From an uncultured Actinomycetota bacterium (GTDB lineage: Bacteria > Actinomycetota > Acidimicrobiia > Spongiisociales > UBA5794), in assembly GCA_963700375.1 (NCBI GenBank), contig CAVOXF010000002.1, forward strand, positions 198,041 through 262,040: 64,000 nucleotides of DNA. Direction: 5' to 3'. The translations under genes and the position numbers were made by a program. Below the pieces are notes generated by a model that searched no databases, was not told where the DNA came from, and was given only the letters and a program-made list of their open reading frames with translations. Shown one piece after another: positions 9,702-37,669 of the stretch; the first letter of the stretch is position 1; every line of letters starts with the position of its first letter.

Positions 9702-12700
9702 ATGCACAGTCTCCGTCGACACCGCTCCGCCGTCTCGTTCGGCGCAGCCTTCTTCATGATTGCCCGTCTGCTGGTCGTCGTAGCAGCCACCGGCTTGCTC
9801 GCGGTCCAAAGCGCGGCCCCTGCATCCGCAGAACCGACCCCCGGGGTCTGTATCACGATCGCGGACTCGGGCGGAGGGAACGGCGGCGACGACCTACTGA
9901 CGATCGTCGACCGGATGAACTTCAACGCCTCCACTAACGAGACGAACGTGGGAACAGGAACGGGTACGTACAGCATCGAGGCGATCGCCCGCGATTCCGC
10001 CGGTGTCATGTATGCGACGAATAACGACCAACTGGGGACGATCAACCTGACCACCGGCGTCTTCAGTACTGGTGGCCGCAGTCCAATGGGCACGGGCACC
10101 GGCGCTCAGGGGTCGGTCAACTTCGGCGATGTCGACGGACTGAGCTTCGACCCCTTCACTGGCCTCCTCTACGGCGCCGAGCGGCAAACCGGTCTCGACC
10201 TGCTGGTCGTCATCAACCCGGCGACTGGGCAGGTCGTCGAGGACTTCTTCGGACCCAACGTCGACTACGTCGAGATTCCGGCGCAAGCGGGATTCCGGGA
10301 CATCGACGACATCGCGATCGATCCCTTCGGCGGAACCATGTACGCGGTCGCGAACAACGGCGGCTCCGGTGACCACCTGGTACGGATCGACAAGACAACG
10401 GGTGCCACCACCGACCTCGGCGAGATTGGCGCCGACGATGTCGAGGGCCTCGGCTTCTCCGACACCGGCCAACTCTGGGGTACGACGGGTACAGCGCCGC
10501 TGGGGCTCTATCCCATCGACAAGACCGGTGGCGGATTCCCGCTCTCGGGAACGATTCGGCCGCTCAACAACGGCGCCGATTACGAGTCGGTCGACTGCCG
10601 GACACCGGTGCCCGCGGGAATCAACACGATCACCGGCACCGTCTTTGGTGATGTCGATCAGGACACGCTCTACGGACCCTCCGACTTCCCGGACCCTGGT
10701 GCGGTCGTTCGCCTCTATCTCGATGTGAACAACAACGGCGTGGTTGATTCCGGTGACGTCCTCGTCGACACGGCGACGACCGCCGGTGACGGCACCTACT
10801 CCTTCGAGTTCAACGCCGTTGGAGACTTCGTCCTCAGCGTCGATCCATCTTCGCTTCCGTCCGGTCACACGATGACCACCGACAGCGTCGAGTCGGCGTC
10901 GTTTGCCACTGTCGGGAACACGGATCCCGGCAATGACTTCGGTTGGTACGTTGCTTCGCCGCTCACCATCACCAAGGATGTGGACCCCATCGGAGAGGTC
11001 GCCCCGGGTCAGGTCTTGACGTATACATTGACCGCTGCGAATCTCGACTCGATCAACCACACCGGCATCACGGTGACCGACGCCGTCCCCGCCGGCACCA
11101 CTTACGTGTCGGGTAGCAGCCAGATCACGGCCCCAACCGTCACCGGTGCGGTGACCTTCCGCGATGAGTTCCCGATCGACAACTCCTATGCCGGGAACAA
11201 CAGCACGCCACCTGGGACGAACTGGTCGGGCAGCTGGGTCGAGGAAGGCGAGAGCGATGGTGCCGGTAGCGGTCGTGTTGAGGTGCGCGACGACAGCCCT
11301 CCCGGAACGAGCTACGCCGCGCGTATCGAGAGGGCCGGGTACGGTCTCCTTCGTCAGGCCAACCTGGCGGGATCTACGTCGGCGACCCTCAGTTTCGATA
11401 TCCGACGGGAATCGGTCCGGAATTCGGTGCTCATCGTCGAGATGGGATCATCGGCGTCCGGGCCTTGGGCCGAGGTTGCACGGTTCACGGGCGGGAACAA
11501 TGGTACGACCACCGTCACCGACAGTTCCTATGCGTCGTACACCTTCGCCGTGCCCCCGGCGGCCTTGACAGCGAACGCGAATGTGCGTTTCCGTGAGACG
11601 ACAGCCAACGACAACTTCTACATCGACAACGTGGCGATAGAGGCGGTTGCGCGTTCAGTCACGACCTTCGCCGGAACCCCACCGCCGAACGTTGCCACCG
11701 GCCTCGAGCTTCGACCGACCGAGACTGCGACGATCACCTTCCAGGTCACGGTCGACTCCCTTCCCGGCACACCGTCGATCGACAATCTCGCGTCCGTGAG
11801 CAGCACGCAGAGTCCGATTCCCGCAACCGACACCGCGACGAACGACGTCGAGGTCTCCATCGACGTCACGAAGACCGCAAATCCGACCACCCTGCCGGAG
11901 CCGGGTGGCGATGTCGCCTACACGATCGATATCGTGAACACCTCCGGCATCGCGGTGACGATCAGCGATCTCGATGACGATGTCTTCGGTGATCTGCTCG
12001 ATGCCGGCAACGCCGCCGTCAGCAGCAACACGTGCGCTTCGATGAACCTCGTGATCCCGCCGGCGCAGCCGCGCTCGTGCACGTTCGACGCTGCACTCGT
12101 GGGTGAACCCCCGGCGACCCACGTGAATACGGTGACCGCCACGGCGGGCAACCCGGGCCACGGATCCGATACTGATACGGATGATGAGACGGTGACGTTC
12201 ACGAACGTCGATCCGACGATCACGATCCTCAAGACGGCGAACCCGACCGAACTCCCTGAACCCGGCGGCGAGGTCACGTTCACGGTGCTGGTCACCAATA
12301 CCTCCCCGGTCGAGTCCGTGACCACTACCTCGCTCACTGACAGCCGCTTCGGCGATCTTCTTGGGACCGATGCGGCCCTGACCGGTGGCGCGACCGCGAC
12401 AACCTGCAACGACGCCCCACAGGCTGCGATTGCGCCCAGCGGCACGTTCTCATGCACGATCACCGCCACGCTCACTGGTGAGGCTGGAACCACCCATACG
12501 AATGTCGTGTCGGTAGAGGCGGTCGATGACGACCCGGGGTCGACGCCGGCGACGGCTACTGACAATGCCGATGTGGATTTCACGAACGTCGATCCGACGA
12601 TCACGGTTGACAAGACCGCCAACCCGACGATGCTTCCGGAGCCAGGCGGCGACGTGACGTACACGATCGTCGTGATGAACACCTCGCCCGACGAGACGGT

Positions 12701-14849
12701 CACGCTCACCGACCTGGACGACAACCGGTTCGGCGACCTCCTCGGCTTCGATGCCGACCTGACCGGCGGCGCAACCGAGACATCGTGCAATGACCCGGTT
12801 TCGGCGATCACGATCGCTTCCGGCGGGATCTACCAGTGCACGGTCACCGCGACACTGACCGGGAATGCCGGTGAGACGCACAACAACATTGTGACGGCCG
12901 TCGCCGTCGATGACGATACGGGTTCGACGCCTGCGACTGACAACGGCGACGCCGACGTCGAGTTCACCGATGTTGATCCGGCGATCGTCGTGACGAAGAC
13001 CGCCAATCCGACGGAGCTCCCGGAGTCGGGTGGTGTGGTGACGTTCGCGATTGTGGTGGCGAACGCCTCGCCAGACGAAGCCGTCACCCTCACGGTCCTC
13101 GACGACGACCGATTCGGCGACCTGCTCGGCCTCGATGCCGATCTGACCGGCGGCGCCACGGCGACGTCGTGCAACGATCCAGTGTCGGCGATCACGATCG
13201 CGGCAGGCGGGACATATGAGTGCAGCGTCACCGCGACGCTCACCGGCAATGCCGCAGCAACTCACGTGAACGTCGTGACGGCGACTGCTGTCGACGACGA
13301 GGGCAATCCGGATTCTGATGACGCGACGGAGACGGTGACGTTCACGAATGTTGATCCCTCGATCTCAATCATCAAGACCGCCGGTCCCCTGATCGTGCCG
13401 GAATCCGGTGGCGTCGTGACGTTCGATGTCGAGGTCACCAACGATTCGCCAGACGAGTCCGTGACGGTGACGGCTCTGACCGATGACATGTTTGGTGATC
13501 TGCTCGGTGCCGATGCTGCGTTGACGGGTGGCGCTTCGGCGACCAGTTGTAACGATTCGTTGCCGATCACGATCGCGTCGGGTGGGACGTTCTCGTGCAC
13601 GATCGACGCGACGCTTGCCGGGAATGCTGGTGATACGCATACGAATGTCGTGTCGGTGACGGCGGTTGATGACGATACGGGTTCGACGCCGGCGACCGAT
13701 GACGATGACGCTGTCGTGACGTTCGACAATGTGGATCCGGAGATCACGGTCGTCAAGACGGCGAATCCGACGACGCTTGACGAGTCGGGTGGCGATGTGG
13801 TGTTCACCGTGGTGGTGACGAATGATTCGCCGGATGAGTCGGTGACGATCACCGATCTCGTCGATGACATGTTTGGTGACCTGCTCGGTGCCGATACGGC
13901 ATTGACGGGTGGAGCGACAGCCACGTCGTGCAACGATGGAGCGCAGGCTGCGATCGCGGCCGGAGCAACGTTCACGTGCACGATCGACGCGACGCTTGCC
14001 GGGAACGCTGGCACGACGCACACGAATGTCGTGACCGCGACGGCGGTCGACAACGACACTGGGTCGACGCCCGCGACCGACGATGACGACGCCGACGTGG
14101 ACTTCACGAACGTCGATCCGTCGATTGTCGTGACGAAGACTGCTGATCCGACGTCGCTCGATGAGCCGGGTGGCGATGTCGAGTTCACGGTCGATGTTGA
14201 GAACACGTCGTTCGAGTCCGTGACGGTTACGGATCTTGTCGATGACATGTTTGGCGATCTGCTCGGGACCGATGCTGCGTTGACGGGTGGCGCTTCGGCG
14301 ACCAGTTGTAACGATTCGTTGCCGATCACGATCGCGTCGGGTGGGACGTTCTCGTGCACGATCGACGCGACGCTTGCCGGGAATGCTGGTGATACGCATA
14401 CGAATGTCGTGTCGGTGACGGCGGTTGATGACGATACGGGTTCGACGCCGGCGACCGATGACGATGACGCTGTCGTGACGTTCGACAATGTGGATCCGGA
14501 GATCACGGTCGTCAAGACGGCGAATCCGACGACGCTTGACGAGTCGGGTGGCGATGTGGTGTTCACCGTGGTGGTGACGAATGATTCGCCGGATGAGTCG
14601 GTGACGATCACCGATCTCGTCGATGACATGTTTGGTGACCTGCTCGGTGCCGATACGGCATTGACGGGTGGAGCGACAGCCACGTCGTGCAACGATGGAG
14701 CGCAGGCTGCGATCGCGGCCGGAGCAACGTTCACGTGCACGATCGACGCGACGCTTGCCGGGAACGCTGGCACGACGCACACGAACGTCGTGACCGCGAC
14801 GGCGGTCGACGACGACACGGGTTCGACTCCTGCGACCGACGTTCGATGA
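9702..14849 (+). CDS. Giant LPXTG surface protein, fragment 1 of 5 (signal peptide, head domains, repeats 1-8)
   Basis: Signal peptide MHSLRRHRSAVSFGAAFFMIARLLVVVAATGLLAVQSAAPASA/EP. It is followed by propeller-like blades, an SdrD-B-like module, one DUF11-like module, a jelly-roll-like module and then tandem repeats. The frame ends at a TGA created by an extra G at 14841. Confidence 0.9.
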   Translation: MHSLRRHRSAVSFGAAFFMIARLLVVVAATGLLAVQSAAPASAEPTPGVCITIADSGGGNGGDDLLTIVDRMNFNASTNETNVGTGTGTYSIEAIARDSAGVMYATNNDQLGTINLTTGVFSTGGRSPMGTGTGAQGSVNFGDVDGLSFDPFTGLLYGAERQTGLDLLVVINPATGQVVEDFFGPNVDYVEIPAQAGFRDIDDIAIDPFGGTMYAVANNGGSGDHLVRIDKTTGATTDLGEIGADDVEGLGFSDTGQLWGTTGTAPLGLYPIDKTGGGFPLSGTIRPLNNGADYESVDCRTPVPAGINTITGTVFGDVDQDTLYGPSDFPDPGAVVRLYLDVNNNGVVDSGDVLVDTATTAGDGTYSFEFNAVGDFVLSVDPSSLPSGHTMTTDSVESASFATVGNTDPGNDFGWYVASPLTITKDVDPIGEVAPGQVLTYTLTAANLDSINHTGITVTDAVPAGTTYVSGSSQITAPTVTGAVTFRDEFPIDNSYAGNNSTPPGTNWSGSWVEEGESDGAGSGRVEVRDDSPPGTSYAARIERAGYGLLRQANLAGSTSATLSFDIRRESVRNSVLIVEMGSSASGPWAEVARFTGGNNGTTTVTDSSYASYTFAVPPAALTANANVRFRETTANDNFYIDNVAIEAVARSVTTFAGTPPPNVATGLELRPTETATITFQVTVDSLPGTPSIDNLASVSSTQSPIPATDTATNDVEVSIDVTKTANPTTLPEPGGDVAYTIDIVNTSGIAVTISDLDDDVFGDLLDAGNAAVSSNTCASMNLVIPPAQPRSCTFDAALVGEPPATHVNTVTATAGNPGHGSDTDTDDETVTFTNVDPTITILKTANPTELPEPGGEVTFTVLVTNTSPVESVTTTSLTDSRFGDLLGTDAALTGGATATTCNDAPQAAIAPSGTFSCTITATLTGEAGTTHTNVVSVEAVDDDPGSTPATATDNADVDFTNVDPTITVDKTANPTMLPEPGGDVTYTIVVMNTSPDETVTLTDLDDNRFGDLLGFDADLTGGATETSCNDPVSAITIASGGIYQCTVTATLTGNAGETHNNIVTAVAVDDDTGSTPATDNGDADVEFTDVDPAIVVTKTANPTELPESGGVVTFAIVVANASPDEAVTLTVLDDDRFGDLLGLDADLTGGATATSCNDPVSAITIAAGGTYECSVTATLTGNAAATHVNVVTATAVDDEGNPDSDDATETVTFTNVDPSISIIKTAGPLIVPESGGVVTFDVEVTNDSPDESVTVTALTDDMFGDLLGADAALTGGASATSCNDSLPITIASGGTFSCTIDATLAGNAGDTHTNVVSVTAVDDDTGSTPATDDDDAVVTFDNVDPEITVVKTANPTTLDESGGDVVFTVVVTNDSPDESVTITDLVDDMFGDLLGADTALTGGATATSCNDGAQAAIAAGATFTCTIDATLAGNAGTTHTNVVTATAVDNDTGSTPATDDDDADVDFTNVDPSIVVTKTADPTSLDEPGGDVEFTVDVENTSFESVTVTDLVDDMFGDLLGTDAALTGGASATSCNDSLPITIASGGTFSCTIDATLAGNAGDTHTNVVSVTAVDDDTGSTPATDDDDAVVTFDNVDPEITVVKTANPTTLDESGGDVVFTVVVTNDSPDESVTITDLVDDMFGDLLGADTALTGGATATSCNDGAQAAIAAGATFTCTIDATLAGNAGTTHTNVVTATAVDDDTGSTPATDVR

Positions 14850-14856
14850 TGCCGAC

Positions 14857-15606
14857 GTGGACTTCACGAACGTCGATCCGTCGATTGTCGTGACGAAGAC
14901 TGCTGATCCGACGTCGCTTGATGAGCCGGGTGGCGATGTCGAGTTCACGGTCGATGTTGAGAACACGTCGTTCGAGTCCGTGACGGTTACGGATCTTGTC
15001 GATGACATGTTTGGTGATCTGCTCGGGACCGATGCTGCGTTGACGGGTGGCGCTTCGGCGACCAGTTGTAACGATTCGTTGCCGATCACGATCGCGTCGG
15101 GTGGGACGTTCTCGTGCACGATCGACGCGACGCTTGCCGGGAATGCTGGGATGACGCATACGAATGTCGTGTCGGTGACGGCGGTTGATGACGATACGGG
15201 TTCGACGCCGGCGACCGATGACGATGACGCTGTCGTGACGTTCGACAATGTGGATCCGGAGATCACGGTCGTCAAGACGGCGAATCCGACGACGCTTGAC
15301 GAGTCGGGTGGCGATGTGGTGTTCACCGTGGTGGTGACGAATGATTCGCCGGATGAGTCGGTGACGATCACCGATCTCGTCGATGACATGTTTGGTGACC
15401 TGCTCGGTGCCGATACGGCATTGACGGGTGGAGCGACAGCCACGTCGTGCAACGATGGAGCGCAGGCTGCGATCGCGGCCGGAGCAACGTTCACGTGCAC
15501 GATTGACGCGACGCTTGCCGGGAACGCTGGCACGACGCACACGAATGTCGTGACCGCCACCGCGGTCGACAACGACACTGGGTTCGACGCCCGCGACCGA
15601 CGATGA
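14857..15606 (+). CDS. Giant LPXTG surface protein, fragment 2 of 5 (the start codon is artefactual)
   Basis: The repeat units (NVDPSIVVTKTADPTSLDEPGG..., NVDPEITVVKTANPTTLDESGG...) continue in the +1 frame. The fragment ends after an extra T at about 15583. Confidence 0.85.
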   Translation: MDFTNVDPSIVVTKTADPTSLDEPGGDVEFTVDVENTSFESVTVTDLVDDMFGDLLGTDAALTGGASATSCNDSLPITIASGGTFSCTIDATLAGNAGMTHTNVVSVTAVDDDTGSTPATDDDDAVVTFDNVDPEITVVKTANPTTLDESGGDVVFTVVVTNDSPDESVTITDLVDDMFGDLLGADTALTGGATATSCNDGAQAAIAAGATFTCTIDATLAGNAGTTHTNVVTATAVDNDTGFDARDRR

Positions 15607-15616
15607 CGACGCCGAC

Positions 15617-16984
15617 GTGGACTTCACGAACGTCGATCCGACCATCACGGTCGACAAGACCGCCGACCCGACCTATCTGCTCGAGCCGGGTGGCGACGTC
15701 GAATTCACCGTGGTGGTGACGAACGACTCGCCGGATGAGTCGGTGACGATCACCGATCTCGTCGATGACATGTTTGGTGACCTGCTCGGTGCCGATACGG
15801 CCCTGACGGGTGGCGCTTCGGCGACGTCGTGCAACGACGGCGTGTCGGCGATCACGATCGCGTCGGGTGGCACGTTCACCTGCACGATCACCGCAAGCCT
15901 CACGGGTGATGCCGGGACGACGCATACGAACGTTGTGACCGCCACGGCGATCGACAACGACACCGGTTCGACTCCTGCGACCGACTTCGATGATGCCGAC
16001 GTCGACTTCACGAACGATGATCCGTCGGTCTCGATCGAGAAGACGGCGAATCCGACGACGCTGCCCGAGCCGGGTGGCGACGTGGTGTTCACCGTGGTCG
16101 TGACGAACGACTCGCCGGATGAGTCGGTGACGATCACCGATCTCGTCGATGACATGTTTGGTGACCTGCTCGGTGCCGATACGGCCCTGACGGGTGGCGC
16201 TTCGGCGACGTCGTGCAACGACGGCGTGTCGGCGATCACGATCGCGTCGGGTGGCACGTTCACCTGCACGATCACCGCAAGCCTCACGGGTGATGCCGGG
16301 ACGACGCATACGAATGTCGTGTCGGTGACGGCGGTTGATGACGATACGGGTTCGACTCCTGCGACCGACTTCGATGATGCCGACGTGGACTTCACGAACG
16401 TCGATCCGACCATCACGGTCGACAAGACCGCCGACCCGACCTATCTGCTCGAGCCGGGTGGCGATGTGGTGTTCACCGTGGTGGTGACGAACGACTCGCC
16501 GGATGAGTCGGTGACGATCACCGATCTCGTCGATGACATGTTTGGTGACCTGCTCGGTGCCGATACGGCATTGACGGGTGGAGCGACAGCCACGTCGTGC
16601 AACGACGGCGTGTCGGCGATCACGATCGCGTCGGGTGGCACGTTCACCTGCACGATCACCGCGACGCTTGCCGGGAACGCTGGCACGACGCACACGAATG
16701 TCGTGACCGCCACGGCGATCGACAACGACACCGGTTCGACTCCTGCGACCGACTTCGATGATGCCGACGTGGACTTCACGAACGTCGATCCGTCGATTGT
16801 CGTGACGAAGACTGCTGATCCGACGTCGCTTGATGAGCCGGGTGGCGATGTCGAGTTCACGGTCGATGTTGAGAACACGTCGTTCGAGTCCGTGACGGTT
16901 ACGGATCTTGTCGATGACATGTTTGGTGATCTCGCTCGGGACCGATGCTGCGTTGACGGGTGGCGCTTCGGCGACCAGTTGTAA
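15617..16984 (+). CDS. Giant LPXTG surface protein, fragment 3 of 5
   Basis: Repeat units continue (NVDPTITVDKTADPTYLLEPGG...). The fragment is terminated after an extra C at 16933. Confidence 0.85.
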   Translation: MDFTNVDPTITVDKTADPTYLLEPGGDVEFTVVVTNDSPDESVTITDLVDDMFGDLLGADTALTGGASATSCNDGVSAITIASGGTFTCTITASLTGDAGTTHTNVVTATAIDNDTGSTPATDFDDADVDFTNDDPSVSIEKTANPTTLPEPGGDVVFTVVVTNDSPDESVTITDLVDDMFGDLLGADTALTGGASATSCNDGVSAITIASGGTFTCTITASLTGDAGTTHTNVVSVTAVDDDTGSTPATDFDDADVDFTNVDPTITVDKTADPTYLLEPGGDVVFTVVVTNDSPDESVTITDLVDDMFGDLLGADTALTGGATATSCNDGVSAITIASGGTFTCTITATLAGNAGTTHTNVVTATAIDNDTGSTPATDFDDADVDFTNVDPSIVVTKTADPTSLDEPGGDVEFTVDVENTSFESVTVTDLVDDMFGDLARDRCCVDGWRFGDQL

Positions 16985-17580
16985 CGATTCGTTGCCGATC
17001 ACGATCGCGTCGGGTGGGACGTTCATCGTGCACGATCGACGCGACGCTTGCCGGGAACGCTGGCACGACGCATACGAATGTTGTGACCGTGACGGCGATC
17101 GACAACGATACGGGTTCGACGCCGGCGACCGATGACGATGACGCTGTCGTGACGTTCGACAATGTGGATCCGGAGATCACGGTCGTCAAGACGGCGAATC
17201 CGACGACGCTTGACGAGTCGGGTGGCGATGTGGTGTTCACCGTGGTGGTGACGAATGATTCGCCGGATGAGTCCGTGACGATCACCGATCTCGTCGATGA
17301 CATGTTTGGTGACCTGCTCGGTGCCGATACGGCATTGACGGGTGGAGCGACAGCCACGTCGTGCAACGATGGAGCGCAGGCTGCGATCGCGGCCGGAGCA
17401 ACGTTCACGTGCACGATCGACGCGACGCTTGCCGGGAACGCTGGCACGACGCACACGAATGTCGTGACCGCCACGGCGGTCGACAACGACACTGGGTCGA
17501 CGCCCGCGACCGACGATCGACGACGCCGACGTGGACTTCACGAACGTCGATCCGTCGATTGTCGTGACGAAGACTGCTGA
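16960..17580 (+). CDS. Giant LPXTG surface protein, fragment 4 of 5
   Basis: The repeat frame resumes after an extra A at 17025; residues 16934-17024 read in the third frame (track ORF 16908-17135). The fragment ends after an extra C at 17518. Confidence 0.8.
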   Translation: MALRRPVVTIRCRSRSRRVGRSSCTIDATLAGNAGTTHTNVVTVTAIDNDTGSTPATDDDDAVVTFDNVDPEITVVKTANPTTLDESGGDVVFTVVVTNDSPDESVTITDLVDDMFGDLLGADTALTGGATATSCNDGAQAAIAAGATFTCTIDATLAGNAGTTHTNVVTATAVDNDTGSTPATDDRRRRRGLHERRSVDCRDEDC

Positions 17581-20500
17581 TCCGACGTCGCTCGATGAGC
17601 CGGGTGGCGATGTCGAGTTCACGGTCGATGTTGAGAACACGTCGTTCGAGTCCGTGACGGTTACGGATCTTGTCGATGACATGTTTGGCAATCTCCTCGG
17701 GACCGATGCTGCGTTGACGGGTGGCGCTTCGGCGACCAGTTGTAACGATTCGTTGCCGATCACGATCGCGTCGGGTGGGACGTTCTCGTGCACGATCGAC
17801 GCGACGCTTGCCGGGAATGCTGGTGATACGCATACGAATGTCGTGTCGGTGACGGCGGTTGATGACGATACGGGTTCGACGCCGGCGACCGATGACGATG
17901 ACGCTGTCGTGACGTTCGACAATGTGGATCCGGAGATCACGGTCGTCAAGACGGCGAATCCGACGACGCTTGACGAGTCGGGTGGCGATGTGGTGTTCAC
18001 CGTGGTGGTGACGAATGATTCGCCGGATGAGTCGGTGACGATCACCGATCTCGTCGATGACCGCTTCGGTGACCTGCTCGGTGCCGATACGGCATTGACG
18101 GGTGGCGCTTCAGCGACGCGTTGCAACGATTCGTTGCCGATCACGATCGCGTCGGGTGTCACGTTCACCTGCACGATCGACGCGACGCTTGCCGGGAACG
18201 CTGGCACGACGCACACGAACGTCGTGACCGTGACGGCGGTTGATGACGATACGGGTTCGACTCCGGCGACCGATGACGATGACGCTGTCGTGACGTTCGA
18301 CAATGTGGATCCGGAGATCACGGTCGTGACGAAGACGGCGAATCCGACGACGCTTGACGAGTCGGGTGGCGATGTGGTGTTCACCGTGGTCGTGACGAAT
18401 GATTCGCCGGATGAGTCGGTGACGATCACCGATCTCGTCGATGACATGTTTGGTGACCTGCTCGGTGCCGATACGGCATTGACGGGTGGAGCGACAGCCA
18501 CGTCGTGCAACGATGGAGCGCAGGCTGCGATCGCGGCCGGAGCAACGTTCACGTGCACCATTGACGCGACGCTTGCCGGGAACGCTGGCACGACGCACAC
18601 GAATGTCGTGACCGCGACGGCGATCGACAACGACACTGGGTCGACGCCCGCGACCGACGATGACGACGCTGTCGTGACGTTCGACAACGTCGACCCGACG
18701 ATCGAGGTCATCAAGACCGCATCTCCGACGAACCTGCCGGAGCCCGGTGGCGACGTCACCTATACCGTCCGAGTCCGGAATACCTCGGTCGAACCAGTGA
18801 CAATCACTGCCTTGACGGATGACCGCTTCGGCAATCTCCTCGGACTCGATGCAAACCTCACTGGCGGCGCTTCGGCGACCAGCTGCAACGACGCTCCGCA
18901 GGCTCCGATCGCGGTCGGCGGCACATTCACCTGCACCATCGACGCAGCGTTGGTCGGCGCGGACGGCGGTTCGCACGTCAACGTTGTCATGGCAACGGCT
19001 GTCGACAACGATCCGGGATCGACGCCGGCAACCGACGATGACGATGCAACAGTCAACTTCGGGCCCAGCGACCTGCCGAGTATCGTCGTGACGAAGACCG
19101 CCAACCCGACGTCGTTGGCGGAACCGGGTGGCGACGTGACCTTCACGGTCTCCGTCGAGAACACATCGGTTGAGACGCTCACTATCACGGACCTGTCCGA
19201 CAACCGGTTCGGCGACCTGTTGGGCCTCGACGCAGCCCTCACCGGCGGCGCGACCGCCACGACCTGCAACGACGCACTGCCGATCGACATCGATGCTTCG
19301 GACACCTTCACCTGCACGATCGACGCGACCCTTGCCGGCGACGCGGGCGACACACACGACAACACCGTGTCCGCGACCGTCGAGGACACCGACGCGAATG
19401 AGGCGACCGAGACGGACGACGCCACGGTCACATTCACGGACGTGCTGCCGACGATCACGGTCGACAAGACCGCCAATCCCACGACGCTCGACGAGCCGGG
19501 TGGGGACGTTCTGTTCACCGTGGTGGTGACGAATACGTCGGTTGAGCCGGTGACGATCACCGGCCTCGTCGACAGCCGCTTCGGCAACCTGCTCGGACCG
19601 GATGCAAACCTCACTGGCGGCGCGACTGCGACGTCGTGCAACGACGCACCGCAGGCTCCGCTCCCCGTCTCGGGCACGTTCACCTGCACGATCGGTGCGA
19701 CACTGACCGGTGACGCCGGCCAGACCCACGACAACGTCGTGCTGGCGACCGCAGTCGACAATGAGAACAACCCGGCGGCCGATGCGGATGGCGCAACGGT
19801 GACGTTCATCGACGCACTGCCGACGATCGAGGTGACGAAGGCGGCCAACCCCACAACGCTGGCCGAGCCGGGTGGCGATGTGACCTTCACCGTTCAGGTG
19901 AGAAACACCTCGGTTGAGACGCTCACTATCACGGACCTGTCCGACAACCGGTTCGGCGATCTGCTGGATATCGATGCCAACCTCACGGGCGGCGCCTCCG
20001 CCACGTCGTGCAATGATGCGCCGCAGGCACCGATTGCCGTTGGTGGCACATTCACGTGCACGATCGACGCCACCCTCGCCGGCGACGCCGGCCAGACGCA
20101 CGAGAACATCGTGTCTGCGACCGCCGTCGACAACGAGAACAACCCGGCAACCGACGACGCCACGGAGACCGTGACGTTCACGAACGTCGACCCGACCATC
20201 CTCGTGACGAAGACCCCGGCTCCGGCGTCGGTGCCAGAGACCGGCGGCAATGTCGTGTTCACGGTCCAGGTCGAGAACACGTCGATCGAGCCGGTGACGA
20301 CCACCGTTCTCTCCGACGACCAGTTCGGGAACCTGTTGGGGCTCGACACGGCGCTGACCGGCGGAGCGACGGCGACGTCGTGCAACGGTTCGTTGCCAAT
20401 CACGATCGCCGTCGGTGGGACCTTCACTTGCACGATCGATGCCACCCTGTCCGGTGACGTGGGCGACACGCACACCAACGTCGTCTCCGCGACCGCCATC

Positions 20501-23500
20501 GACAACGACACTGGGTCCACTCCCGCCACGGACGATGACGATGCCGACGTCACGTTCACCGACGTGCCGCCGAACATTGGAGTCACGAAGACGCCGTCGG
20601 TCGGATCCGTAGATGAGCCGGGCGACACCGTCACCTTCGACGTGACCGTGGACAACGCGTCCGCTGAAGCTGTCACACTCAACACACTCACCGACACCGT
20701 ATTCGGCAACCTGCTGGATGCGGCCAACACCGCCGTCGACGCGAACACCTGCGCAACCGAGGATCGGGATATCCCGGCCGGCGGATCGTTCACCTGCTCG
20801 TTCGACGCCGATCTGGTCGGCACAGCGGCAGGGCCCGACCATCAGAACACGATCAGGGCTGTCGCCAGCGACAACGAGGGCACCCCTGCTGAGGACGACG
20901 ACTCCGCGACCGTCGGATTCGACGACATCCTTCCGACCATCTCGGTCGACAAGACCGTGAACCCGGGATCGCTCCCGGAGCCCGGTGGATCCGCGACCTT
21001 CTCGGTCTCGGTCGCCAACACGTCTGACGAGCCGATCACGCTCGACTCGCTGAACGATTCGGTGTTTGGGAACCTGCTGCTCGGCACCAACGCTGCCGTG
21101 ACGCTGAACACCTGCGCAACGGAGCCTCGCCCCATTCCCGTGGGCGGAACCTTCGACTGCACGTTCGTTGCCGACCTCGTCGGTGACGCTGCCGGTGCCG
21201 ACCACCTCGACCGGGTGACGGCTGGAGCCTCTGACGACGAGGGGAACGACACCTCGGCGTTCGATGAGGCAACCGTCGTCTACACGGACGTGCTGCCATC
21301 GGTCAGCATCTCGAAGTCGCCTTCGGTCGGCTCGATCCCCGAGCCCGGCGGACCGGTCACCTTCTCGATCCTGGTGGCCAATACGTCCATCGAGAGCATC
21401 GTCATCGACACGCTCAGCGACAGCGACTTCGGCGACCTCTTGGACGGCTCCAACCCGAACGTGTCGGCGAACACCTGCCCGGCGCAGGCGACCACCCTGC
21501 CGATTGGCGGGACGCTGAGTTGCGTGTTCACGGCCGTCGTCACCGGCGACGCCTCCGGAGCGGACCACAGCAACACCGCGACCGTTGAAGCCCACGACAA
21601 CGAGGACAACTCGGTCTCGGATAGCGACGACGCCATCGTCGAGTTCACCGACGCGCTCCCCAACGTTGACGTCACGAAGAGTCCCTCACCGGCCTCTGTG
21701 CCTGAGCCGGGGGACACCGTCACCTTCACCGTGACGATCGACAACACGGTCGACGAAGACGTGACGCTCACGGCGCTGGTCGATGACGTATACGGCAACC
21801 TGCTCGACAACGGCAACGCTGCCGTGTCGGACAACAGCTGCCCGACGGTGTCGCGCGACATCGCGGTCGGCGGATCGTTCACGTGCTCCTTCGACGCCTT
21901 CGTGGCCGGCAACTTCGGTGATCCGGCGCACATCAACACGGTCGAGGCCAGCGTCATCGACAACGAACTCAATCCGGCCACCGACGGTGATTCGGCAACC
22001 GTCACCTACAACGACGTGCCTCCGACCATCGACGTCTCGAAGAACGTCACACCGGGATCGCTTGCAGAACCTGGCGGACCGGCGGTCTTCACGGTCGAGG
22101 TGACCAACACCTCGGTCGAAGCCGTGACGCTTGACTCGCTCGTCGACAGCGACTTCGGCGACTTGCTCGACGCAGGCAACGGTGCGGTGTCCGCCAATAC
22201 CTGTCCGACGGTGCTGCGAGACATCGCAATTGGTGGAACGTTCGCTTGCACATTCACCGCCGATCTCGTCGGCGACGCGTCTGGTCCCGACCATGCCAAC
22301 ACCGTGTCGGCCGAGGCCTCCGATGACGACGGGAACCCGACAACCGACAGCGACGATGCGACCGTCGAGTTCGACGATGTGCTGCCGACGGTCACGACGG
22401 CGAAGACGCCAAGCGCGGGTTCGGTGTCCGAGCCAGGGGCCACCGTCACGTTCACAGTGAGCGTCGAGAACACCTCGCCCGAGTCGGTGACCTTGACCGA
22501 CCTCGATGACGACGTGTTCGGCGACCTGCTCGATATCAACAACACGGCCATCACCAACAACGCCTGCCTGACACCGTCGAGGGACATCGCGATCGGGGGG
22601 GCGTTCACGTGCACCTTCGATGCGTTCATCGCCGGCAACAACGGCGATCCGGCACATGAGAACACGGTGACGGCAATCGTCGAAGACAACGACGGGAATG
22701 ATGGAACTGACGACGACGACGCCACCGTGGCGTTCGGCGACACGCTCCCCACCATCGACGTCACCAAGACCGCGAACCCGGGATCCGTTGCGGAGCCGGG
22801 TGGGACGGTCACCTTCAGCGTGACGGTCGCTAACACCAGCGTCGAAGCTCTCACCCTGACGGCACTCGACGACGATCAGTATGGCGACCTGCTGGATGGC
22901 GGGAACGCGCTGGTGTCGGACAACACCTGCGCAGGCCCGGATCCGACCATCGCCGTCGGGGGCTCGTTCACGTGCTCCTTCGATGCCTTCGTGGGCGGTG
23001 ACGCCTCCGGATCCGACCATGTCAACATCGTCACGGCGACCGCCGAAGACGATGACACGAACGAGGTCATGGACGACGACTCGGCCGTGGTCACGATCAC
23101 CGACGTGCCGCCGACGGTCACGACGACCAAGACGCCGTCGGCTGCCAACGTGTCAGAGCCCGGGGACACCGTGACCTTCTCGGTCTCGATCCAGAACACC
23201 TCGCTCGAGTCGGTGACGCTGACGTCGCTGACCGACGATGTGTTCGGCGACCTGCTGACCGTGAACCCGCTGCTGTCCTCCAACACGTGCCCGTCACAGC
23301 CCGTCGACATGGCGGCCGGAGATACGTTCTCATGTAGCTTCGACGCATTCGTCGTCGGCAACTTCGGCGATGCTGCCCATGTCGACACCGTCACCGCGAC
23401 GGTACGTGACAACGACGGCACCACGGGGAGCGGCGGCGACGACGCCACCGTCGACTTCACGGACGCGCCGCCGAACATCAGCGTCGCCAAGTCGGCATCG

Positions 23501-26500
23501 CCGACCGCGGTCGATGAGCCTGGCGAAACGGTGACCTTCACCGTCGAGGTGACCAACTCATCCGTCGAGGATGTGACCCTCAACTCACTGAACGACGATG
23601 TGTTCGGGAACCTGCTGGACGCCGCCAACGCTGCGGTCTCAGCGAACACCTGCCCGGCGCAGCCGACCACCATTGCCGTCGGCGGCACCCTGACGTGCTC
23701 GTTCGACGCGTTCGTCGCCGGCGACTTCGGCGATCCGGCGCACATCGATACTGTGACGGCCGAAGTCGAGGACGACGATGGCAATGCGGCGGAGGACGAT
23801 GACACCGCCACCGTGACCTTCCTGGATCAGCTGCCGTTGATCGACGTGACGAAGACGCCGTCGACCGGTTCGCTCCCGGAGCCAGGTGGCACGGTCACGT
23901 TCAACGTTGTCGTTGCGAACAACGGGCCTGAGCCGGTGACAGTCACGACGCTCGACGACACGGTGTTCGGAGACCTGCTTGATCCCGCCAACCCGAATGT
24001 CATCATCAACACCTGCGCTGCCGAGCCGCTGACGATTCCCGTGAGCGGAAGCCTCACGTGCCTCTTCACGGCCGATCTGGTCGGCGATGCGAACGGACCG
24101 GCGCACGAGAACACCGTCAATGTGACGGCGGAAGACGACGAGGGGAACATCGCTCGCTCCGACGATCCGGCGACGGTCACGTTCACGGACGTTCTGCCGA
24201 CGGCCTCGGTCACCAAGACGCCGAGTGTCGGCACGGTGCCCGAGCCGGGCGCACCGGTGACCTTCACGGTCTCGGTGACGAACACGGCGCCAGAGGACCT
24301 GACCCTCGACGGTTTGACCGACGATGTGTTCGGCGATCTCCTCGATCCCACGAACCCGGATGTCGACTCCAACACCTGTCCGGATCAGCCGACGACGATC
24401 CTGGTTGGTGAGACGCTGACCTGCTCCTTCGAGGGCCTGGTCGTCGGCGATGCATCCGGTCCGGATCACGAGAACACCGTGACCGCGGAACTCTCGGACA
24501 ACGACGGCAACAACGTGACGCCCGATGACACGGCGACGGTGACGTTCGACGACGCTCTGCCGAACATCTCGGTGACGAAGACGCCGTCCGAAGGCGTCGT
24601 CACGGAACCGGGTGGGACGGTCACGTTCGACATCTCGGTCAGCGCCTCGGCTTCCGAGGAACTGACGCTGGCCGCCCTGGACGATGACGTCTTCGGCAAC
24701 CTGCTCGACCCGACGAATGCCGCGGTGTCGAACAACACCTGCGCCACCCAGTCGACCACGATTCCTACCGGTGGCACGTTCACCTGCTCGTTCGACGGCT
24801 TCGTCGCCGGCAACTTCGGTGATCCCGACCATGTCAATACGATCGAGGCGACCGCACGCGACAACGAGGGGAATGGGGCAACTGCCGACGACTCCGCGAC
24901 GGTGACCTTCGAGGACTACATCCCGACGATCACCGTCGGGAAGGCGGCGAGCGTTGCGAGCGTCGATGAACCAGGGGCTACCGTCACGTTCAGCGTCGAT
25001 GTGACCAACACCGGCGTCCAGGACGTCACGTTGACCGACCTCACCGACGACGTGTACGGCGACCTGCTCGACGCCGGCAACGGCCGGGTCAGCGCCAACA
25101 CCTGCGTGGCGCAGCCGACCACGATCCCAGCTGGTGACACGTTCACCTGCGCCTTCGATGCCTATGTCGCCGGAAACGCCGCTGGGCCCGACCACGTGAA
25201 CACGGTGTCGGCGACCGTGGAAGACGGCGACGGCGACGAGGCCACGGACGACGACCCGGCAACGGTCACGATCATCAACGTGCCCCCGGTCGTCACGGTC
25301 AACAAGACGGCCTCTGCCACGTCAGTCGGCGAGTCCGGTGGCACGGTCACGTTCACCGTCGTGGTCACCAACGGCTCAGACGAATCGGTGACGGTCACCG
25401 ACCTCGTGGACGATGTGTTCGGCGACCTCCTCGATCCGGCCAACCCCGGGGTCACCGCCAACACGTGCCCGGCCCAGTACACGGCACTGGCAGTCGGCGG
25501 CAGCCTGACCTGCACATTCGACGGATTCATCTCCGGCGATGCGAGTGGCCCCGCCCACGAGAACACCGTCACGGCCACCGTGGTCGATGACGACGGGACC
25601 ACCGACGATGACGACGACTCGGCGACCGTGGCGTTCGACGACTCGCCGCCCTCGGTCGAGGTCGCCAAGACCGCAACCGCTTCGGTCGTCGGGGCACCGG
25701 GTGAGACCGTGACGTTCATGGTCGAGATCACGAACGACGGCGATGAGGCGGTCACCATTACCTCACTCACGGACGATGTATACGGCGATCTGCTCGATGC
25801 CGGCAACACCGCGCTCTCGAGCAACACCTGTCCGCTGCAGCCGGTTGACGTCGCGGTTGGCGACAGCTTCCGCTGCACGTTCGACGGCTTCGTCGGAGGC
25901 GACGGGTCCGGTGTAGATCACGTCAACACGGTGACGGTCAATGCCATGGATAATGATGGCACCTCGACCGAGGGCGACGATTCGGCGACCGTGGTCATCA
26001 ACCCGGTGGTCATCCCGGCATCGGTATCCGGATATGTGTGGCTGGATCTCAACCCGAACTTCGAGTTCGACGCCACCGAGCCGCCGTTCACCGGCCTGAT
26101 GGTCCACCTCTACGACGCAGCCGGCTTCGAGGTGGGGTCGACCCCGGTCGGCACAGACGGCTTCTACCAGTTCGCCGACCTGCGGCCCGGCGACCACACC
26201 ATCATTGTTGATGGCGGGACCGTTGAGCCGGGCTATGTTGTGGTACTTGACCCCGACGGTGTCAATGACCTCAACACCACGGTCAGCCTGGCTCCGGGCG
26301 AGAATCTCGCGCATCGTGACTTTGCCTACCGCGGCGACGCCGAGATCGGTGACACTGTGTGGCTCGACTCCAACCGCAGCGGGGTCCAGGATGCCGGCGA
26401 ACCCGGCATCGGCGGAGTCGGTGCTGAGCTCGTGTGGGCGGGCCTTGACGGGGTCTTCGGGACGGCCGACGACTACCGCTACCCGGAGCAGCTGACGAAC

Positions 26501-26806
26501 TCGAATGGGAACTACCTCTTCGCCGGGCTCCCGCCGGGCTACTACCTGATCGCCGTCGACACGGTGCAGGGCATGACACCAACGACGGCGACGACCTTCA
26601 CGATCGACCTCGGCCCATCCGAGGCGTACATGCTCGGCGACGTCGGGATGGTTGCGACGGACCCCGAGCCGCTCCCGAAGACGGGTTCGGACACCGACCG
26701 ACTCGTGGCGAGCGGTGTGATGGCCATCATGTTTGGAGTTCTCTTGCTCCTCGGCGCGGCCTTCCTCCAGCGCAAACGCGACGACGAAGCCGTCGAGAGC
26801 ACATAG
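17531..26806 (+). CDS. Giant LPXTG surface protein, fragment 5 of 5 (repeats 16-38, two SdrD-B-like domains, sorting signal)
   Basis: 3091 aa. After the repeats come two modules of the G.VW.D.N.NG..D..E.G type. The C-terminus is LPKTG (26672-26686), then SDTDR, a hydrophobic helix LVASGVMAIMFGVLLLLGAAFL and a QRKRDD tail, which is a canonical sortase sorting signal. Confidence 0.9.
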   Translation: MDFTNVDPSIVVTKTADPTSLDEPGGDVEFTVDVENTSFESVTVTDLVDDMFGNLLGTDAALTGGASATSCNDSLPITIASGGTFSCTIDATLAGNAGDTHTNVVSVTAVDDDTGSTPATDDDDAVVTFDNVDPEITVVKTANPTTLDESGGDVVFTVVVTNDSPDESVTITDLVDDRFGDLLGADTALTGGASATRCNDSLPITIASGVTFTCTIDATLAGNAGTTHTNVVTVTAVDDDTGSTPATDDDDAVVTFDNVDPEITVVTKTANPTTLDESGGDVVFTVVVTNDSPDESVTITDLVDDMFGDLLGADTALTGGATATSCNDGAQAAIAAGATFTCTIDATLAGNAGTTHTNVVTATAIDNDTGSTPATDDDDAVVTFDNVDPTIEVIKTASPTNLPEPGGDVTYTVRVRNTSVEPVTITALTDDRFGNLLGLDANLTGGASATSCNDAPQAPIAVGGTFTCTIDAALVGADGGSHVNVVMATAVDNDPGSTPATDDDDATVNFGPSDLPSIVVTKTANPTSLAEPGGDVTFTVSVENTSVETLTITDLSDNRFGDLLGLDAALTGGATATTCNDALPIDIDASDTFTCTIDATLAGDAGDTHDNTVSATVEDTDANEATETDDATVTFTDVLPTITVDKTANPTTLDEPGGDVLFTVVVTNTSVEPVTITGLVDSRFGNLLGPDANLTGGATATSCNDAPQAPLPVSGTFTCTIGATLTGDAGQTHDNVVLATAVDNENNPAADADGATVTFIDALPTIEVTKAANPTTLAEPGGDVTFTVQVRNTSVETLTITDLSDNRFGDLLDIDANLTGGASATSCNDAPQAPIAVGGTFTCTIDATLAGDAGQTHENIVSATAVDNENNPATDDATETVTFTNVDPTILVTKTPAPASVPETGGNVVFTVQVENTSIEPVTTTVLSDDQFGNLLGLDTALTGGATATSCNGSLPITIAVGGTFTCTIDATLSGDVGDTHTNVVSATAIDNDTGSTPATDDDDADVTFTDVPPNIGVTKTPSVGSVDEPGDTVTFDVTVDNASAEAVTLNTLTDTVFGNLLDAANTAVDANTCATEDRDIPAGGSFTCSFDADLVGTAAGPDHQNTIRAVASDNEGTPAEDDDSATVGFDDILPTISVDKTVNPGSLPEPGGSATFSVSVANTSDEPITLDSLNDSVFGNLLLGTNAAVTLNTCATEPRPIPVGGTFDCTFVADLVGDAAGADHLDRVTAGASDDEGNDTSAFDEATVVYTDVLPSVSISKSPSVGSIPEPGGPVTFSILVANTSIESIVIDTLSDSDFGDLLDGSNPNVSANTCPAQATTLPIGGTLSCVFTAVVTGDASGADHSNTATVEAHDNEDNSVSDSDDAIVEFTDALPNVDVTKSPSPASVPEPGDTVTFTVTIDNTVDEDVTLTALVDDVYGNLLDNGNAAVSDNSCPTVSRDIAVGGSFTCSFDAFVAGNFGDPAHINTVEASVIDNELNPATDGDSATVTYNDVPPTIDVSKNVTPGSLAEPGGPAVFTVEVTNTSVEAVTLDSLVDSDFGDLLDAGNGAVSANTCPTVLRDIAIGGTFACTFTADLVGDASGPDHANTVSAEASDDDGNPTTDSDDATVEFDDVLPTVTTAKTPSAGSVSEPGATVTFTVSVENTSPESVTLTDLDDDVFGDLLDINNTAITNNACLTPSRDIAIGGAFTCTFDAFIAGNNGDPAHENTVTAIVEDNDGNDGTDDDDATVAFGDTLPTIDVTKTANPGSVAEPGGTVTFSVTVANTSVEALTLTALDDDQYGDLLDGGNALVSDNTCAGPDPTIAVGGSFTCSFDAFVGGDASGSDHVNIVTATAEDDDTNEVMDDDSAVVTITDVPPTVTTTKTPSAANVSEPGDTVTFSVSIQNTSLESVTLTSLTDDVFGDLLTVNPLLSSNTCPSQPVDMAAGDTFSCSFDAFVVGNFGDAAHVDTVTATVRDNDGTTGSGGDDATVDFTDAPPNISVAKSASPTAVDEPGETVTFTVEVTNSSVEDVTLNSLNDDVFGNLLDAANAAVSANTCPAQPTTIAVGGTLTCSFDAFVAGDFGDPAHIDTVTAEVEDDDGNAAEDDDTATVTFLDQLPLIDVTKTPSTGSLPEPGGTVTFNVVVANNGPEPVTVTTLDDTVFGDLLDPANPNVIINTCAAEPLTIPVSGSLTCLFTADLVGDANGPAHENTVNVTAEDDEGNIARSDDPATVTFTDVLPTASVTKTPSVGTVPEPGAPVTFTVSVTNTAPEDLTLDGLTDDVFGDLLDPTNPDVDSNTCPDQPTTILVGETLTCSFEGLVVGDASGPDHENTVTAELSDNDGNNVTPDDTATVTFDDALPNISVTKTPSEGVVTEPGGTVTFDISVSASASEELTLAALDDDVFGNLLDPTNAAVSNNTCATQSTTIPTGGTFTCSFDGFVAGNFGDPDHVNTIEATARDNEGNGATADDSATVTFEDYIPTITVGKAASVASVDEPGATVTFSVDVTNTGVQDVTLTDLTDDVYGDLLDAGNGRVSANTCVAQPTTIPAGDTFTCAFDAYVAGNAAGPDHVNTVSATVEDGDGDEATDDDPATVTIINVPPVVTVNKTASATSVGESGGTVTFTVVVTNGSDESVTVTDLVDDVFGDLLDPANPGVTANTCPAQYTALAVGGSLTCTFDGFISGDASGPAHENTVTATVVDDDGTTDDDDDSATVAFDDSPPSVEVAKTATASVVGAPGETVTFMVEITNDGDEAVTITSLTDDVYGDLLDAGNTALSSNTCPLQPVDVAVGDSFRCTFDGFVGGDGSGVDHVNTVTVNAMDNDGTSTEGDDSATVVINPVVIPASVSGYVWLDLNPNFEFDATEPPFTGLMVHLYDAAGFEVGSTPVGTDGFYQFADLRPGDHTIIVDGGTVEPGYVVVLDPDGVNDLNTTVSLAPGENLAHRDFAYRGDAEIGDTVWLDSNRSGVQDAGEPGIGGVGAELVWAGLDGVFGTADDYRYPEQLTNSNGNYLFAGLPPGYYLIAVDTVQGMTPTTATTFTIDLGPSEAYMLGDVGMVATDPEPLPKTGSDTDRLVASGVMAIMFGVLLLLGAAFLQRKRDDEAVEST

Positions 26807-28010: not shown

Positions 28011-28447
28011 CAAACCTCGCTCACCAATTCCGTGATGACGGCGACTGCCCCGTCGATTGCCCGTGCCGTTGCTGGGGAGAGATCGAAGCCGAGCTCGAGG
28101 TTGGTCGCGGGGATTGAGACGACATAGGCGGCATCGGGCATTCGGCCCAGATCCCGAGCTAGGCGAAGCAGGGTTGCCGGGTCGGCATGGTGGCTCATGG
28201 CATGCGATCCCGCGACGCCGGCCTCGACCAGGGCGACGTCCAACTCAGCGGTATCGATGCTGGCATCGACGAAGATCACGATATCGGCCTTGGCAACCTC
28301 GAGCGCCAACTCGGGTGTGAGTTGTGACTGTGCGAGAACCTCGACGCCGGGAAGGGCGGCCTTCTCGATCAGCGAGGCGACGATGCGGCCGGCGCGATCG
28401 TCTCCGCGAAGATCGTTCCCGTATCCGACAACGAGGGCCTCAGCCAC
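28010..28447 (-). CDS. hoxW: [NiFe] hydrogenase maturation endopeptidase
   Basis: Contains ALVVGYGNDLRGDDRAG... typical of HybD/HoxW proteases. I prefer the GTG at 28445-28447, which overlaps the hoxH stop (GTGGCTGA). The track start at 28486 would overlap hoxH by 47 nt. Confidence 0.8.
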   Translation of the reverse strand: MAEALVVGYGNDLRGDDRAGRIVASLIEKAALPGVEVLAQSQLTPELALEVAKADIVIFVDASIDTAELDVALVEAGVAGSHAMSHHADPATLLRLARDLGRMPDAAYVVSIPATNLELGFDLSPATARAIDGAVAVITELVSEV

Positions 28448-29870: not shown

Positions 29871-29892
29871 GTTCTTCACGTTGTCGTCCTCC

Positions 29893-33335: not shown

Positions 33336-33478
33336 CGTTCCCCGTCTCCGTATCGCCATACCTTGTCCGGACGCGTGAGTCGGGGCTAGGGGCCAATGGC
33401 ACGATCACCGCGGGAACAAGGACCCTGGACGGGAGATGCAGGCCACGAGCTGCGAACAGCATGTGTGATGCTCAGGTG

Positions 33479-36672: not shown

Positions 36673-36743
36673 GATGTGGTTGGGCTCCAGGGGCGCGGGC
36701 GCGAGAGCGTATCAGAGTCGATCCACCGCCATCCTGCCGCAGC

Positions 36744-37580: not shown

Positions 37581-37669
37581 GTAGACCTCTCGAGCCGTCT
37601 GCGTGTGCTCCGCACGATACCGTCCAGGATCGGGGTCTGCCGTCGGGTGATCGTCCGGGCGGACCCTCG

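Follow-up and report, generated by a model that had tools for sequence, protein, structure and literature searches.

A probable giant fibrillar adhesin with a CLIPPER-type stalk, encoded by five open reading frames of an uncultured Acidimicrobiia bacterium

Introduction

DUF11-containing proteins of more than 5,000 amino acids are already a recognised group of bacterial 'huge proteins' (PLoS Comput Biol 2024, PMC11573180). A 2025 paper renamed the families DUF11 and DUF7507 as CLIPPER and CLIPPER_2, isopeptide stalk domains of fibrillar adhesins (PMC12617251). In the structure 9IFR an isopeptide bond between Lys715 and Asn806 confers thermal and protease resistance, and disulfides occur beside the isopeptide bond in approximately 30-35% of CLIPPER-type domains; among isopeptide domains from Actinomycetota the share is 41% (PMC12617251). 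Here we describe a locus at positions 9702-26806 of a 64-kb stretch of contig CAVOXF010000002.1 (the window), which derives from an uncultured actinobacterium of the class Acidimicrobiia. We hold with good confidence that five open reading frames (ORFs) at this locus are pieces of one gene for a giant fibrillar adhesin, and that the protein is probably made full-length.

The protein B9T28_05395 of Acinetobacter silvestris (9IFR; PMC12617251) has, like the one considered here, a stalk of tandem immunoglobulin (Ig)-like CLIPPER/CLIPPER_2 domains, with a head on its N-terminal side and an anchor on its C-terminal side. Both proteins conserve Lys, Asp and Asn at the places suited to an intramolecular isopeptide bond, and both have pairs of cysteines in addition. 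The two differ in size, 2,129 residues in Acinetobacter against 5,699 here (about 2.7 times as many), with 39 CLIPPER-type domains in the present protein. They also differ at both ends, where an OmpA-like anchor and a CshA-like head contrast with an LPXTG-type signal and a head composed of propeller, SdrD_B-like and nested jelly-roll-like modules. The predicted disulfide is placed elsewhere than the CTTC motif, and sequence similarity to 9IFR is marginal.

Three further groups invite comparison. In staphylococcal SdrC and SdrD the SdrD_B domains adjoin the LPXTG signal, as they do here, and the NCBIfam SdrC and SdrD models match the C-terminal region at sub-family level. However, the score is 64 bits against an equivalog cutoff of 1,700 bits, the A-region (DEv-IgG) and SD repeats are absent, and the stalk is formed of CLIPPER domains, not B repeats. 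SpaA, SpaD and Cna share CnaA/CnaB-type Ig folds with Lys-Asn isopeptide bonds (fold type and bonds both predicted in our case) and sortase signals, and SpaA and SpaD are among the Foldseek matches of our head model. SpaA-type pilins are polymerised into a pilus by a sortase, whereas the present locus specifies one giant polypeptide with no pilin motif and no adjoining pilus sortase. The DUF11 'huge proteins' are likewise envelope proteins of over 5,000 residues built of DUF11 repeats, but they form a catalogue without mechanism or architecture (PMC11573180), to which this locus adds an Acidimicrobiia host, an LPXTG tail and a nested head domain. Set beside these systems the adhesin is a large, fairly ordinary CLIPPER-stalk fibrillar adhesin; what is particular to it is the host, the 39 CLIPPER-type domains, the nested head domain and the propeller module.

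Gene continuity and reading frames

Five ORFs on the + strand cover the locus.

9702-14849, + strand: ORF fragment 1
14857-15606, + strand: ORF fragment 2
15617-16984, + strand: ORF fragment 3
16960-17580, + strand: ORF fragment 4
17531-26806, + strand: ORF fragment 5, 9.3 kb, clean after the last frameshift

In three-frame translation the repeat sequence crosses every junction by moving into the following frame, the succession being 0, 1, 2, 0, 1, 2. BLAST and pairwise alignment against sister repeat copies place a single inserted base at each of five positions (14844, 15583, 16933, 17025 and 17518). When these are removed 17,100 nucleotides remain, that is 5,699 codons and a stop, uninterrupted by any internal stop. 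An earlier note on this DNA had claimed one gene interrupted by five inserted bases. The corrected ORF and the continuity of the repeats bear this out, as do the syntenic orthologues and the purifying selection described below. All five frameshifts are present in the deposited assembly, where the annotated genes coincide with the fragments listed above. At 90% identity the flanking genes cluster with genes from Acidimicrobiia metagenome-assembled genomes.

On the opposite strand long ORFs also cover the locus; these were dismissed as genes, as none has the pattern of G+C content at third codon positions (GC3) that marks real genes. Promoter and terminator scans were uninformative, the single terminator-like site falling inside the next gene, and Rfam identified neither a riboswitch nor any other RNA, whether in the leader or in the rest of the window.

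The stalk repeats

A phmmer search with one unit returns 38 contiguous repeats, residues 714-5432, each of the 38 with exactly two cysteines; the 38 tandem two-Cys repeats of the earlier note are thus counted correctly. The periods given by Tandem Repeats Finder are 384 and 372 nucleotides. The limits below derive from phmmer domains, repeat alignment and a DNA identity matrix.

11841-12206, + strand: repeat R1 (residues 714-835, 122 residues), class II-like
12207-20563, + strand: repeats R2-R23, class I, 124-128 residues, best Pfam match DUF11/CLIPPER, period 384 nucleotides; this part holds all five frameshifts
13731-18688, + strand: recently amplified block R6-R18, in which copies of a two-unit super-repeat are 96-99.5% identical
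20564-26002, + strand: repeats R24-R38, class II, 120-121 residues, best Pfam match DUF7507/CLIPPER_2, corresponding one to one with repeats of the orthologue on contig_48278

Membership of both families is above the curated gathering scores. R1-R4 score 71.3 bits with DUF11 (PF01345, cutoff 24.6) and 41.2 bits with DUF7507 (PF24346). For R24-R27 the order is reversed, 58.1 bits with DUF7507 (cutoff 27) and 45 bits with DUF11. The NCBIfam model TIGR01451 (B_ant_repeat) also matches the repeats, at 32-39 bits against a cutoff of 24. By these profiles class I (R2-R23, approximately 127 residues) is CLIPPER-like and class II (R1 and R24-R38, approximately 121 residues) CLIPPER_2-like. The earlier note had not been able to assign the repeat fold with confidence and had considered the element the least ordinary in the window. 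The fold can be assigned through these families and, since they describe a known Ig-like stalk domain with isopeptide bonds, the element is less unusual than first thought.

At the DNA level R6-R10, R14-R16 and R18 form the two-unit super-repeat, with 96-99.5% identity between copies. The outer repeats, R1-R5 and R19-R38, are 50-75% identical to one another.

Orthologues, synteny and selection

Four other assemblies show the same gene order around the adhesin gene, namely an esterase gene upstream and EamA and Hox-type NiFe hydrogenase genes downstream. A 99% identical sister, L001, has a short, scrambled array of some 7-8 partial units, and in L047 and L049 the adhesin gene is cut into many fragments. 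A further orthologue lies on ERZ25039514 contig_48278 (L048 and L050). Its head is 76% identical to that of the window and is followed by an uninterrupted ORF of 4,857 residues (14.6 kb unbroken) with 37 repeats and the same tail of LPKTG, transmembrane helix and RKR. The last 16 of these repeats correspond one to one to R23-R38. The wall-proximal stalk is therefore conserved, and turnover by tandem amplification affects the central part. The central array of contig_48278 (residues 1141-2202) consists of nine identical Cys-less CLIPPER-type units of 118 residues and four identical units of 112 residues, none of which occurs in the window.

When the window is compared with contig_48278, the ratio of nonsynonymous to synonymous substitution rates (dN/dS) comes to 0.19 for the 2,206 codons that follow the last break, compared with 0.13-0.18 for the head and 0.13 for the flanking esterase, values that indicate purifying selection. 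Synonymous divergence (dS) is 0.37 over window positions 20186-26803, about half of the 0.88-1.09 in the head and the 0.73 in the esterase; strains may have recombined in this part of the stalk, or the repeats may be under codon constraints.

Fold and predicted cross-links of the repeats

A residue pattern suited to an isopeptide bond, namely a first-strand Lys, a late-strand Asn or Asp and a catalytic Asp or Glu, is present in the repeats. The Lys (x-K-T, in the first strand), the Asp of L-x-D-D-x-F-G-D-L-L and a His are each found in 38 of 38 repeats, and the position two after the His (H-x-N) is Asn in 35 and Asp in three. The complete protein of 5,699 residues has only 43 lysines, 38 at this one repeat position and five elsewhere. 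The repeat Lys and Asn pair with K715 and N806 of 9IFR in an hhalign alignment to the construct sequence, which was taken from the supplement of PMC12617251. The alignment is weak (E 0.004, probability 8%) and we use it for residue correspondence only. The Lys-to-Asp spacing is 35-36 residues and the Lys-to-Asn spacing 89-91, compared with approximately 33-34 and 91 in 9IFR.

As the earlier note had proposed, one unit of each class was modelled. AlphaFold2, supplied with an alignment of the other repeat pairs, gives an all-beta structure for R23 and R24, with nine strands and then eight, and a mean predicted local distance difference test score (pLDDT) of 91.9. The model is soft only at the LTGGA loop, which is specific to class I and immediately precedes the first Cys. 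Foldseek against the PDB matches the model to generic tandem Ig-like structures (RbmA, transglutaminase barrels, integrin legs), 9IFR lying outside the top 50. PDB sequence searches with the di-repeat, the repeat profile, the head and the insert gave no meaningful match and did not recover 9IFR. An Ig-like fold class is thus supported for the repeats; a CnaA topology and the formation of the bonds are predictions. Each stalk domain is probably locked by one Lys-Asn (or Asp) isopeptide bond and one disulfide.

The head

The N-terminal part of the protein, ahead of the repeats, is made up as follows; the signal peptide was read from the sequence and the modules from AlphaFold2 models, with Foldseek for the first and a DUF11 profile match for the split domain.

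9702-9830, + strand: start codon and Sec-type signal peptide (residues 1-43, MHSLRRHR...APASA), predicted cleavage before EP
9846-10601, + strand: head module 1 (residues 49-300), all-beta and propeller-like
10614-10952, + strand: head module 2 (residues 305-417), SdrD_B-like beta-sandwich
10962-11123, + strand: N-terminal half of a split CLIPPER/DUF11 domain (residues 421-474), with the Lys in LTITKD, matching DUF11 profile positions 2-54 of 114
11124-11669, + strand: nested insert (residues 475-656), jelly-roll-like, all-beta
11670-11840, + strand: C-terminal half of the split CLIPPER/DUF11 domain (residues 657-713), IDNLASVSS

The N-terminus has a basic stretch followed by a hydrophobic helix, modelled at residues 15-30 with low confidence over residues 1-45, and is kept in the orthologue P0002. 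Head module 1 is predicted with pLDDT above 90 and strands throughout. The Foldseek matches of the head model are generic and multi-domain, and include the YVTN propeller/PKD S-layer fragment 1l0q and integrin alpha propellers. C50 and C299, the only cysteines outside the repeats, flank this module and are nearly invariant among homologues. In Pfam it finds only DUF4394 (PF14339), below threshold (21.9 against 29.6 bits); DUF6923 (PF21959) has no match in the window protein, and a 50%-identical relative, P0047, just passes it at 30.1 against 27 bits. By these scores the head is at best a divergent relative.

The SdrD_B match of head module 2 is likewise below threshold (E 0.0049, 17.5 against 29.7 bits), and the orthologues carry PF17210 matches. 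When residues 475-656 are excised in silico the DUF11 score rises from 30.6 to 51.6 bits and the profile is covered from 2 to 112 of 114. We conclude from this full-length match that a 39th CLIPPER domain encloses the jelly-roll-like module. The DUF11-like and jelly-roll-like modules that the earlier note described are accordingly both present, but they are not consecutive as it had them. No Pfam family covers the insert, and the PDB contains no sequence relative of it. The insert is also found at the N-terminus of P0005 and is thus an autonomous domain.

Beyond this gene the propeller module is common. There are 1,505 cluster representatives (clusters at 50% identity) at E<=1e-3 and 274 at E<=1e-30. 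The module behaves as a discrete unit of about 250 residues that may stand anywhere in a protein, singly or in up to three copies, and it occurs in many phyla. A single-protein scan of genome contigs found only distant head relatives (at most 56% identity) from many phyla, with no close orthologue among species representatives, and a literature search found no paper mentioning DUF4394 or DUF6923. In three homologues of residues 49-305 (P0047, P0048 and P0064) the approximately 50% identical module is fused to a C-terminal Sortase domain (PF04203, 76-85 bits). These proteins are of roughly 500-700 residues and come from other organisms, and one has a CLIPPER domain between the two parts. We propose, tentatively and as an idea more likely wrong than right, that the head is a new ligand-binding apparatus in which a mobile, Cys-clamped propeller is combined with a jelly-roll-like domain nested in CLIPPER.

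The C-terminus

Two features follow the last repeat.

26003-26656, + strand: two SdrD_B domains (residues 5433-5650; PF17210)
26672-26806, + strand: cell-wall sorting signal, with LPKTG at 26672-26686, a hydrophobic helix, a QRKRDD... tail and the stop; read from the sequence

The SdrD_B pair is matched in two stretches with 101 bits (cutoff 29.7). The extreme C-terminus reads LPKTG-SDTDR-LVASGVMAIMFGVLLLLGAAFL-QRKRDDEAVEST, the tripartite form of a sorting signal. The hydrophobic stretch after LPKTG has 22 residues and the tail beginning QRKRDD exceeds typical ones in both length and acidity; the signal is kept in the orthologue. All the terminal features named in the earlier note are present: an N-terminus like a signal peptide ending ASA/EP, the motifs of the blades, two SdrD_B modules near the C-terminus, and LPKTG with its helix and basic tail. 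The Pfam search that it recommended for the corrected protein places DUF11, DUF7507 and SdrD_B above their cutoffs and Gram_pos_anchor below. Among NCBIfam anchor models only LPXTG_double matches, below threshold (16.4 against 48 bits), and no sortase gene lies within 10 kb at the orthologous loci.

A head at the N-terminus, 38 stalk repeats and then an anchor signal at the C-terminus give the protein the layout of a fibrillar adhesin. The mature form would have a mass of approximately 566 kDa and an isoelectric point near 4.05, with Asp making up 12.7% and Thr 16% of residues. A LytR-CpsA-Psr (LCP) family gene on the - strand at 62898-63944 of the window belongs to a family of wall glycopolymer ligases in Gram-positives and is consistent with a Gram-positive-type wall.

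Origin of the frameshifts

The five inserted bases are as follows.

14844, + strand: inserted base 1, R8 linker; GTTCGATGAT against TTCGATGAT or GATGACGAC in sister copies, GTTCGATGAT being G plus TTCGATGAT
15583, + strand: inserted base 2, R10; TGGGTT against TGGGT or GGGTT in sister copies
16933, + strand: inserted base 3, R14; TCTCG against TCTG or CCTG in sister copies, and readable as a mixture of TCTG with CCTC
17025, + strand: inserted base 4, R14; ATC against TC or AC in sister copies
17518, + strand: inserted base 5, R15 linker; GATCGACGAC mixes GATGACGAC with TTCGATGAT of sister copies

All five changes are +1 insertions and all fall in units that have 96-99.5% identical twins. Such units make up about 20% of the gene and, by simple arithmetic, the chance that five of five would fall there is approximately 3e-4. 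The inserted base is the alternative allele at that column in another repeat variant, so that both alleles stand in tandem. Judged against R5-R18 this holds for four of the five sites, compared with 23% for random insertion (p approximately 0.01). Tandem alleles are what a consensus caller would leave on mixing reads of different repeat copies or strains. In the unique flanks (approximately 20 kb) there is no window-side indel relative to L001, and the breaks in sister assemblies are at other positions, two of them within the signal-peptide region and another within the contig_48278 insert.

Indels also affect neighbouring genes in the related assemblies. At about 3240 in L001 (2940 in the window) one extra T splits an MFS transporter gene that is intact, at 394 residues, in the window. 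In L049 a C_GCAxxG gene is broken into 93 and 67 residues and the esterase is 290 residues long against 409. Indel errors therefore do occur in these assemblies. We consider it likely, though less firmly than the continuity of the gene, that the frameshifts are consensus errors of long-read metagenome assembly in near-identical repeats, in which case the organism probably makes the full-length protein. That the tandem-allele insertions are real products of recombination between repeats and act as an on/off switch is less likely even than the new ligand-binding apparatus suggested above for the head.

Assessment of the reading and its alternatives

Several points weigh against the locus being one intact gene for a wall-anchored, cross-linked adhesin. 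The evidence for the isopeptide and disulfide bonds is residue conservation, the hhalign match to 9IFR is weak, and the Foldseek matches are generic. The Gram_pos_anchor hidden Markov model (PF00746) stays below its cutoff (12.0 against 20 bits, E 0.22). No ORF of the 64-kb window matches the Sortase family, as the earlier note had also found, and no real gene there contains a TLxTC motif. 'Sortase-anchored', the earlier description, thus holds good for the motif, which is present and conserved in the orthologue; anchoring itself is a prediction from that motif. The frameshifts stand in the deposited assembly. In every related assembly the gene is interrupted at some point, most flanking genes being intact, a state that could result if a costly gene had truly decayed several times over. 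One insertion site is common to R8 and R15, which could reflect duplication of a real mutation. Finally, the copy number in the near-identical block could be mis-assembled.

Is the array the right length? A chimeric or mis-sized array, in which the true number or order of units differs and 38 repeats and 5,699 residues are not the real length, is possible, if on the doubtful side. The R6-R18 copies are 96-99.5% identical over about 5 kb, the sister L001 has a far shorter array, and the consensus mixing at the frameshift sites implies that reads of different copies were confounded. Against this, the contig extends over 545 kb with clean unique flanks, the orthologue on contig_48278 arrives at a similar total of 37 repeats, and R1-R5 and R19-R38, at only 50-75% identity, are unambiguous. 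An error of this kind would alter the copy number and not the nature of the gene.

Is the gene intact in the organism? Were the breaks genuine, the locus would be a recently inactivated pseudogene from which at most a secreted, unanchored N-terminal fragment of 1,715 residues is made. Loss or truncation of giant adhesin genes is frequent, and the insertion shared by R8 and R15 looks as if a mutated block had been duplicated; the deposited frameshifts, with gene calls that follow the fragments, and the broken state of the locus in all five related assemblies examined point the same way. A dN/dS of 0.19 downstream of the breaks and a 9.3-kb ORF clean past the last frameshift weigh against decay. 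So do insertions that are exclusively +1, confined to approximately 20% of the gene in near-identical copies, and that duplicate alternative alleles of sister repeats. The break positions, moreover, vary among assemblies, and one orthologue is uninterrupted for 14.6 kb. We regard a pseudogene as improbable.

Five independent genes with genuine starts, the outcome that the earlier note had set against its own reading, or one gene with programmed +1 ribosomal frameshifting or phase variation, can be rejected: every fragment does start at an in-frame GTG and all the shifts share one direction, but fragments 2-5 have no signal peptide, their start is the first GTG in a repeat linker with no Shine-Dalgarno-like sequence upstream, two breaks fall inside the single domain R14, the five contexts differ and share no slippery motif, homopolymer or short-repeat tract, the orthologue keeps one frame across the homologous region, and five successive low-efficiency shifts would be expected to yield almost no full-length product.

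Proposed mechanism

Taking the locus as one adhesin gene, we suggest the following. The Sec signal peptide would direct export, after which a housekeeping sortase encoded elsewhere would cleave LPKT|G and link the protein to peptidoglycan. The two SdrD_B domains and 38 CLIPPER/CLIPPER_2 Ig-like domains would then form a stalk of approximately 150 nm, a length estimated from typical Ig-domain dimensions. An autocatalytic Lys-Asn/Asp isopeptide bond and a disulfide in each stalk domain may provide mechanical and protease resistance. The scarcity of other lysines and the acidic linkers would fit a protease-resistant rod, possibly stiffened by cations. At the tip the Cys-clamped propeller, the SdrD_B-like module and the 39th CLIPPER domain with its nested jelly-roll-like module may engage a ligand. 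The central stalk would turn over fast by unequal recombination.

Neighbouring genes

A complete-looking cluster for a Hox-type bidirectional, nicotinamide adenine dinucleotide (NAD)-linked [NiFe] hydrogenase occupies 28440-33359 on the - strand. It comprises the large subunit, an Oxidored_q6 small subunit, a 2Fe-2S/4Fe-4S HoxU-like protein, a NuoF-like diaphorase and a 2Fe-2S thioredoxin-like HoxE, and it adjoins the adhesin gene in all related assemblies. Downstream of the hydrogenase, at 34246-37829 on the - strand, are a GH94 gene of the cellobiose/chitobiose-phosphorylase type (520 bits) and a PPK2 polyphosphate kinase gene, with synteny in L050 and L051.

Two further loci may be mentioned. 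At 47073-48932 a luciferase-like monooxygenase ORF matches only positions 21-190 of a 314-position profile and overlaps a DUF222 (HNH-endonuclease-associated) ORF on the opposite strand; the monooxygenase gene may have been truncated by a mobile DUF222 gene. At 49255-52187 (+ strand) the gene for a radical-SAM/SPASM enzyme bearing a SEC-C motif immediately precedes that for a sulfatase, the arrangement expected of an anaerobic sulfatase-maturating enzyme and its substrate.

Significance

Five 'hypothetical' fragments become one interpretable gene, for a probable wall-anchored adhesin with 39 domains that are probably locked by isopeptide bonds, and the CLIPPER stalk architecture is extended to an uncultured environmental class of actinobacteria. 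The analysis also supplies a reusable diagnostic of assembly frameshifts in repeats, namely insertions that occur only in near-identical copies and whose base is the alternative allele in a sister repeat. The comparison of orthologues sets a fast-changing central stalk against a conserved wall-proximal one. A widespread and unstudied head module, sometimes fused to sortase domains, has been flagged; if the propeller does bind a specific, widespread environmental ligand, or is functionally coupled to sortases, it would represent a new family of adhesive or recognition domains. For the organism itself the locus points to surface attachment as part of its lifestyle.

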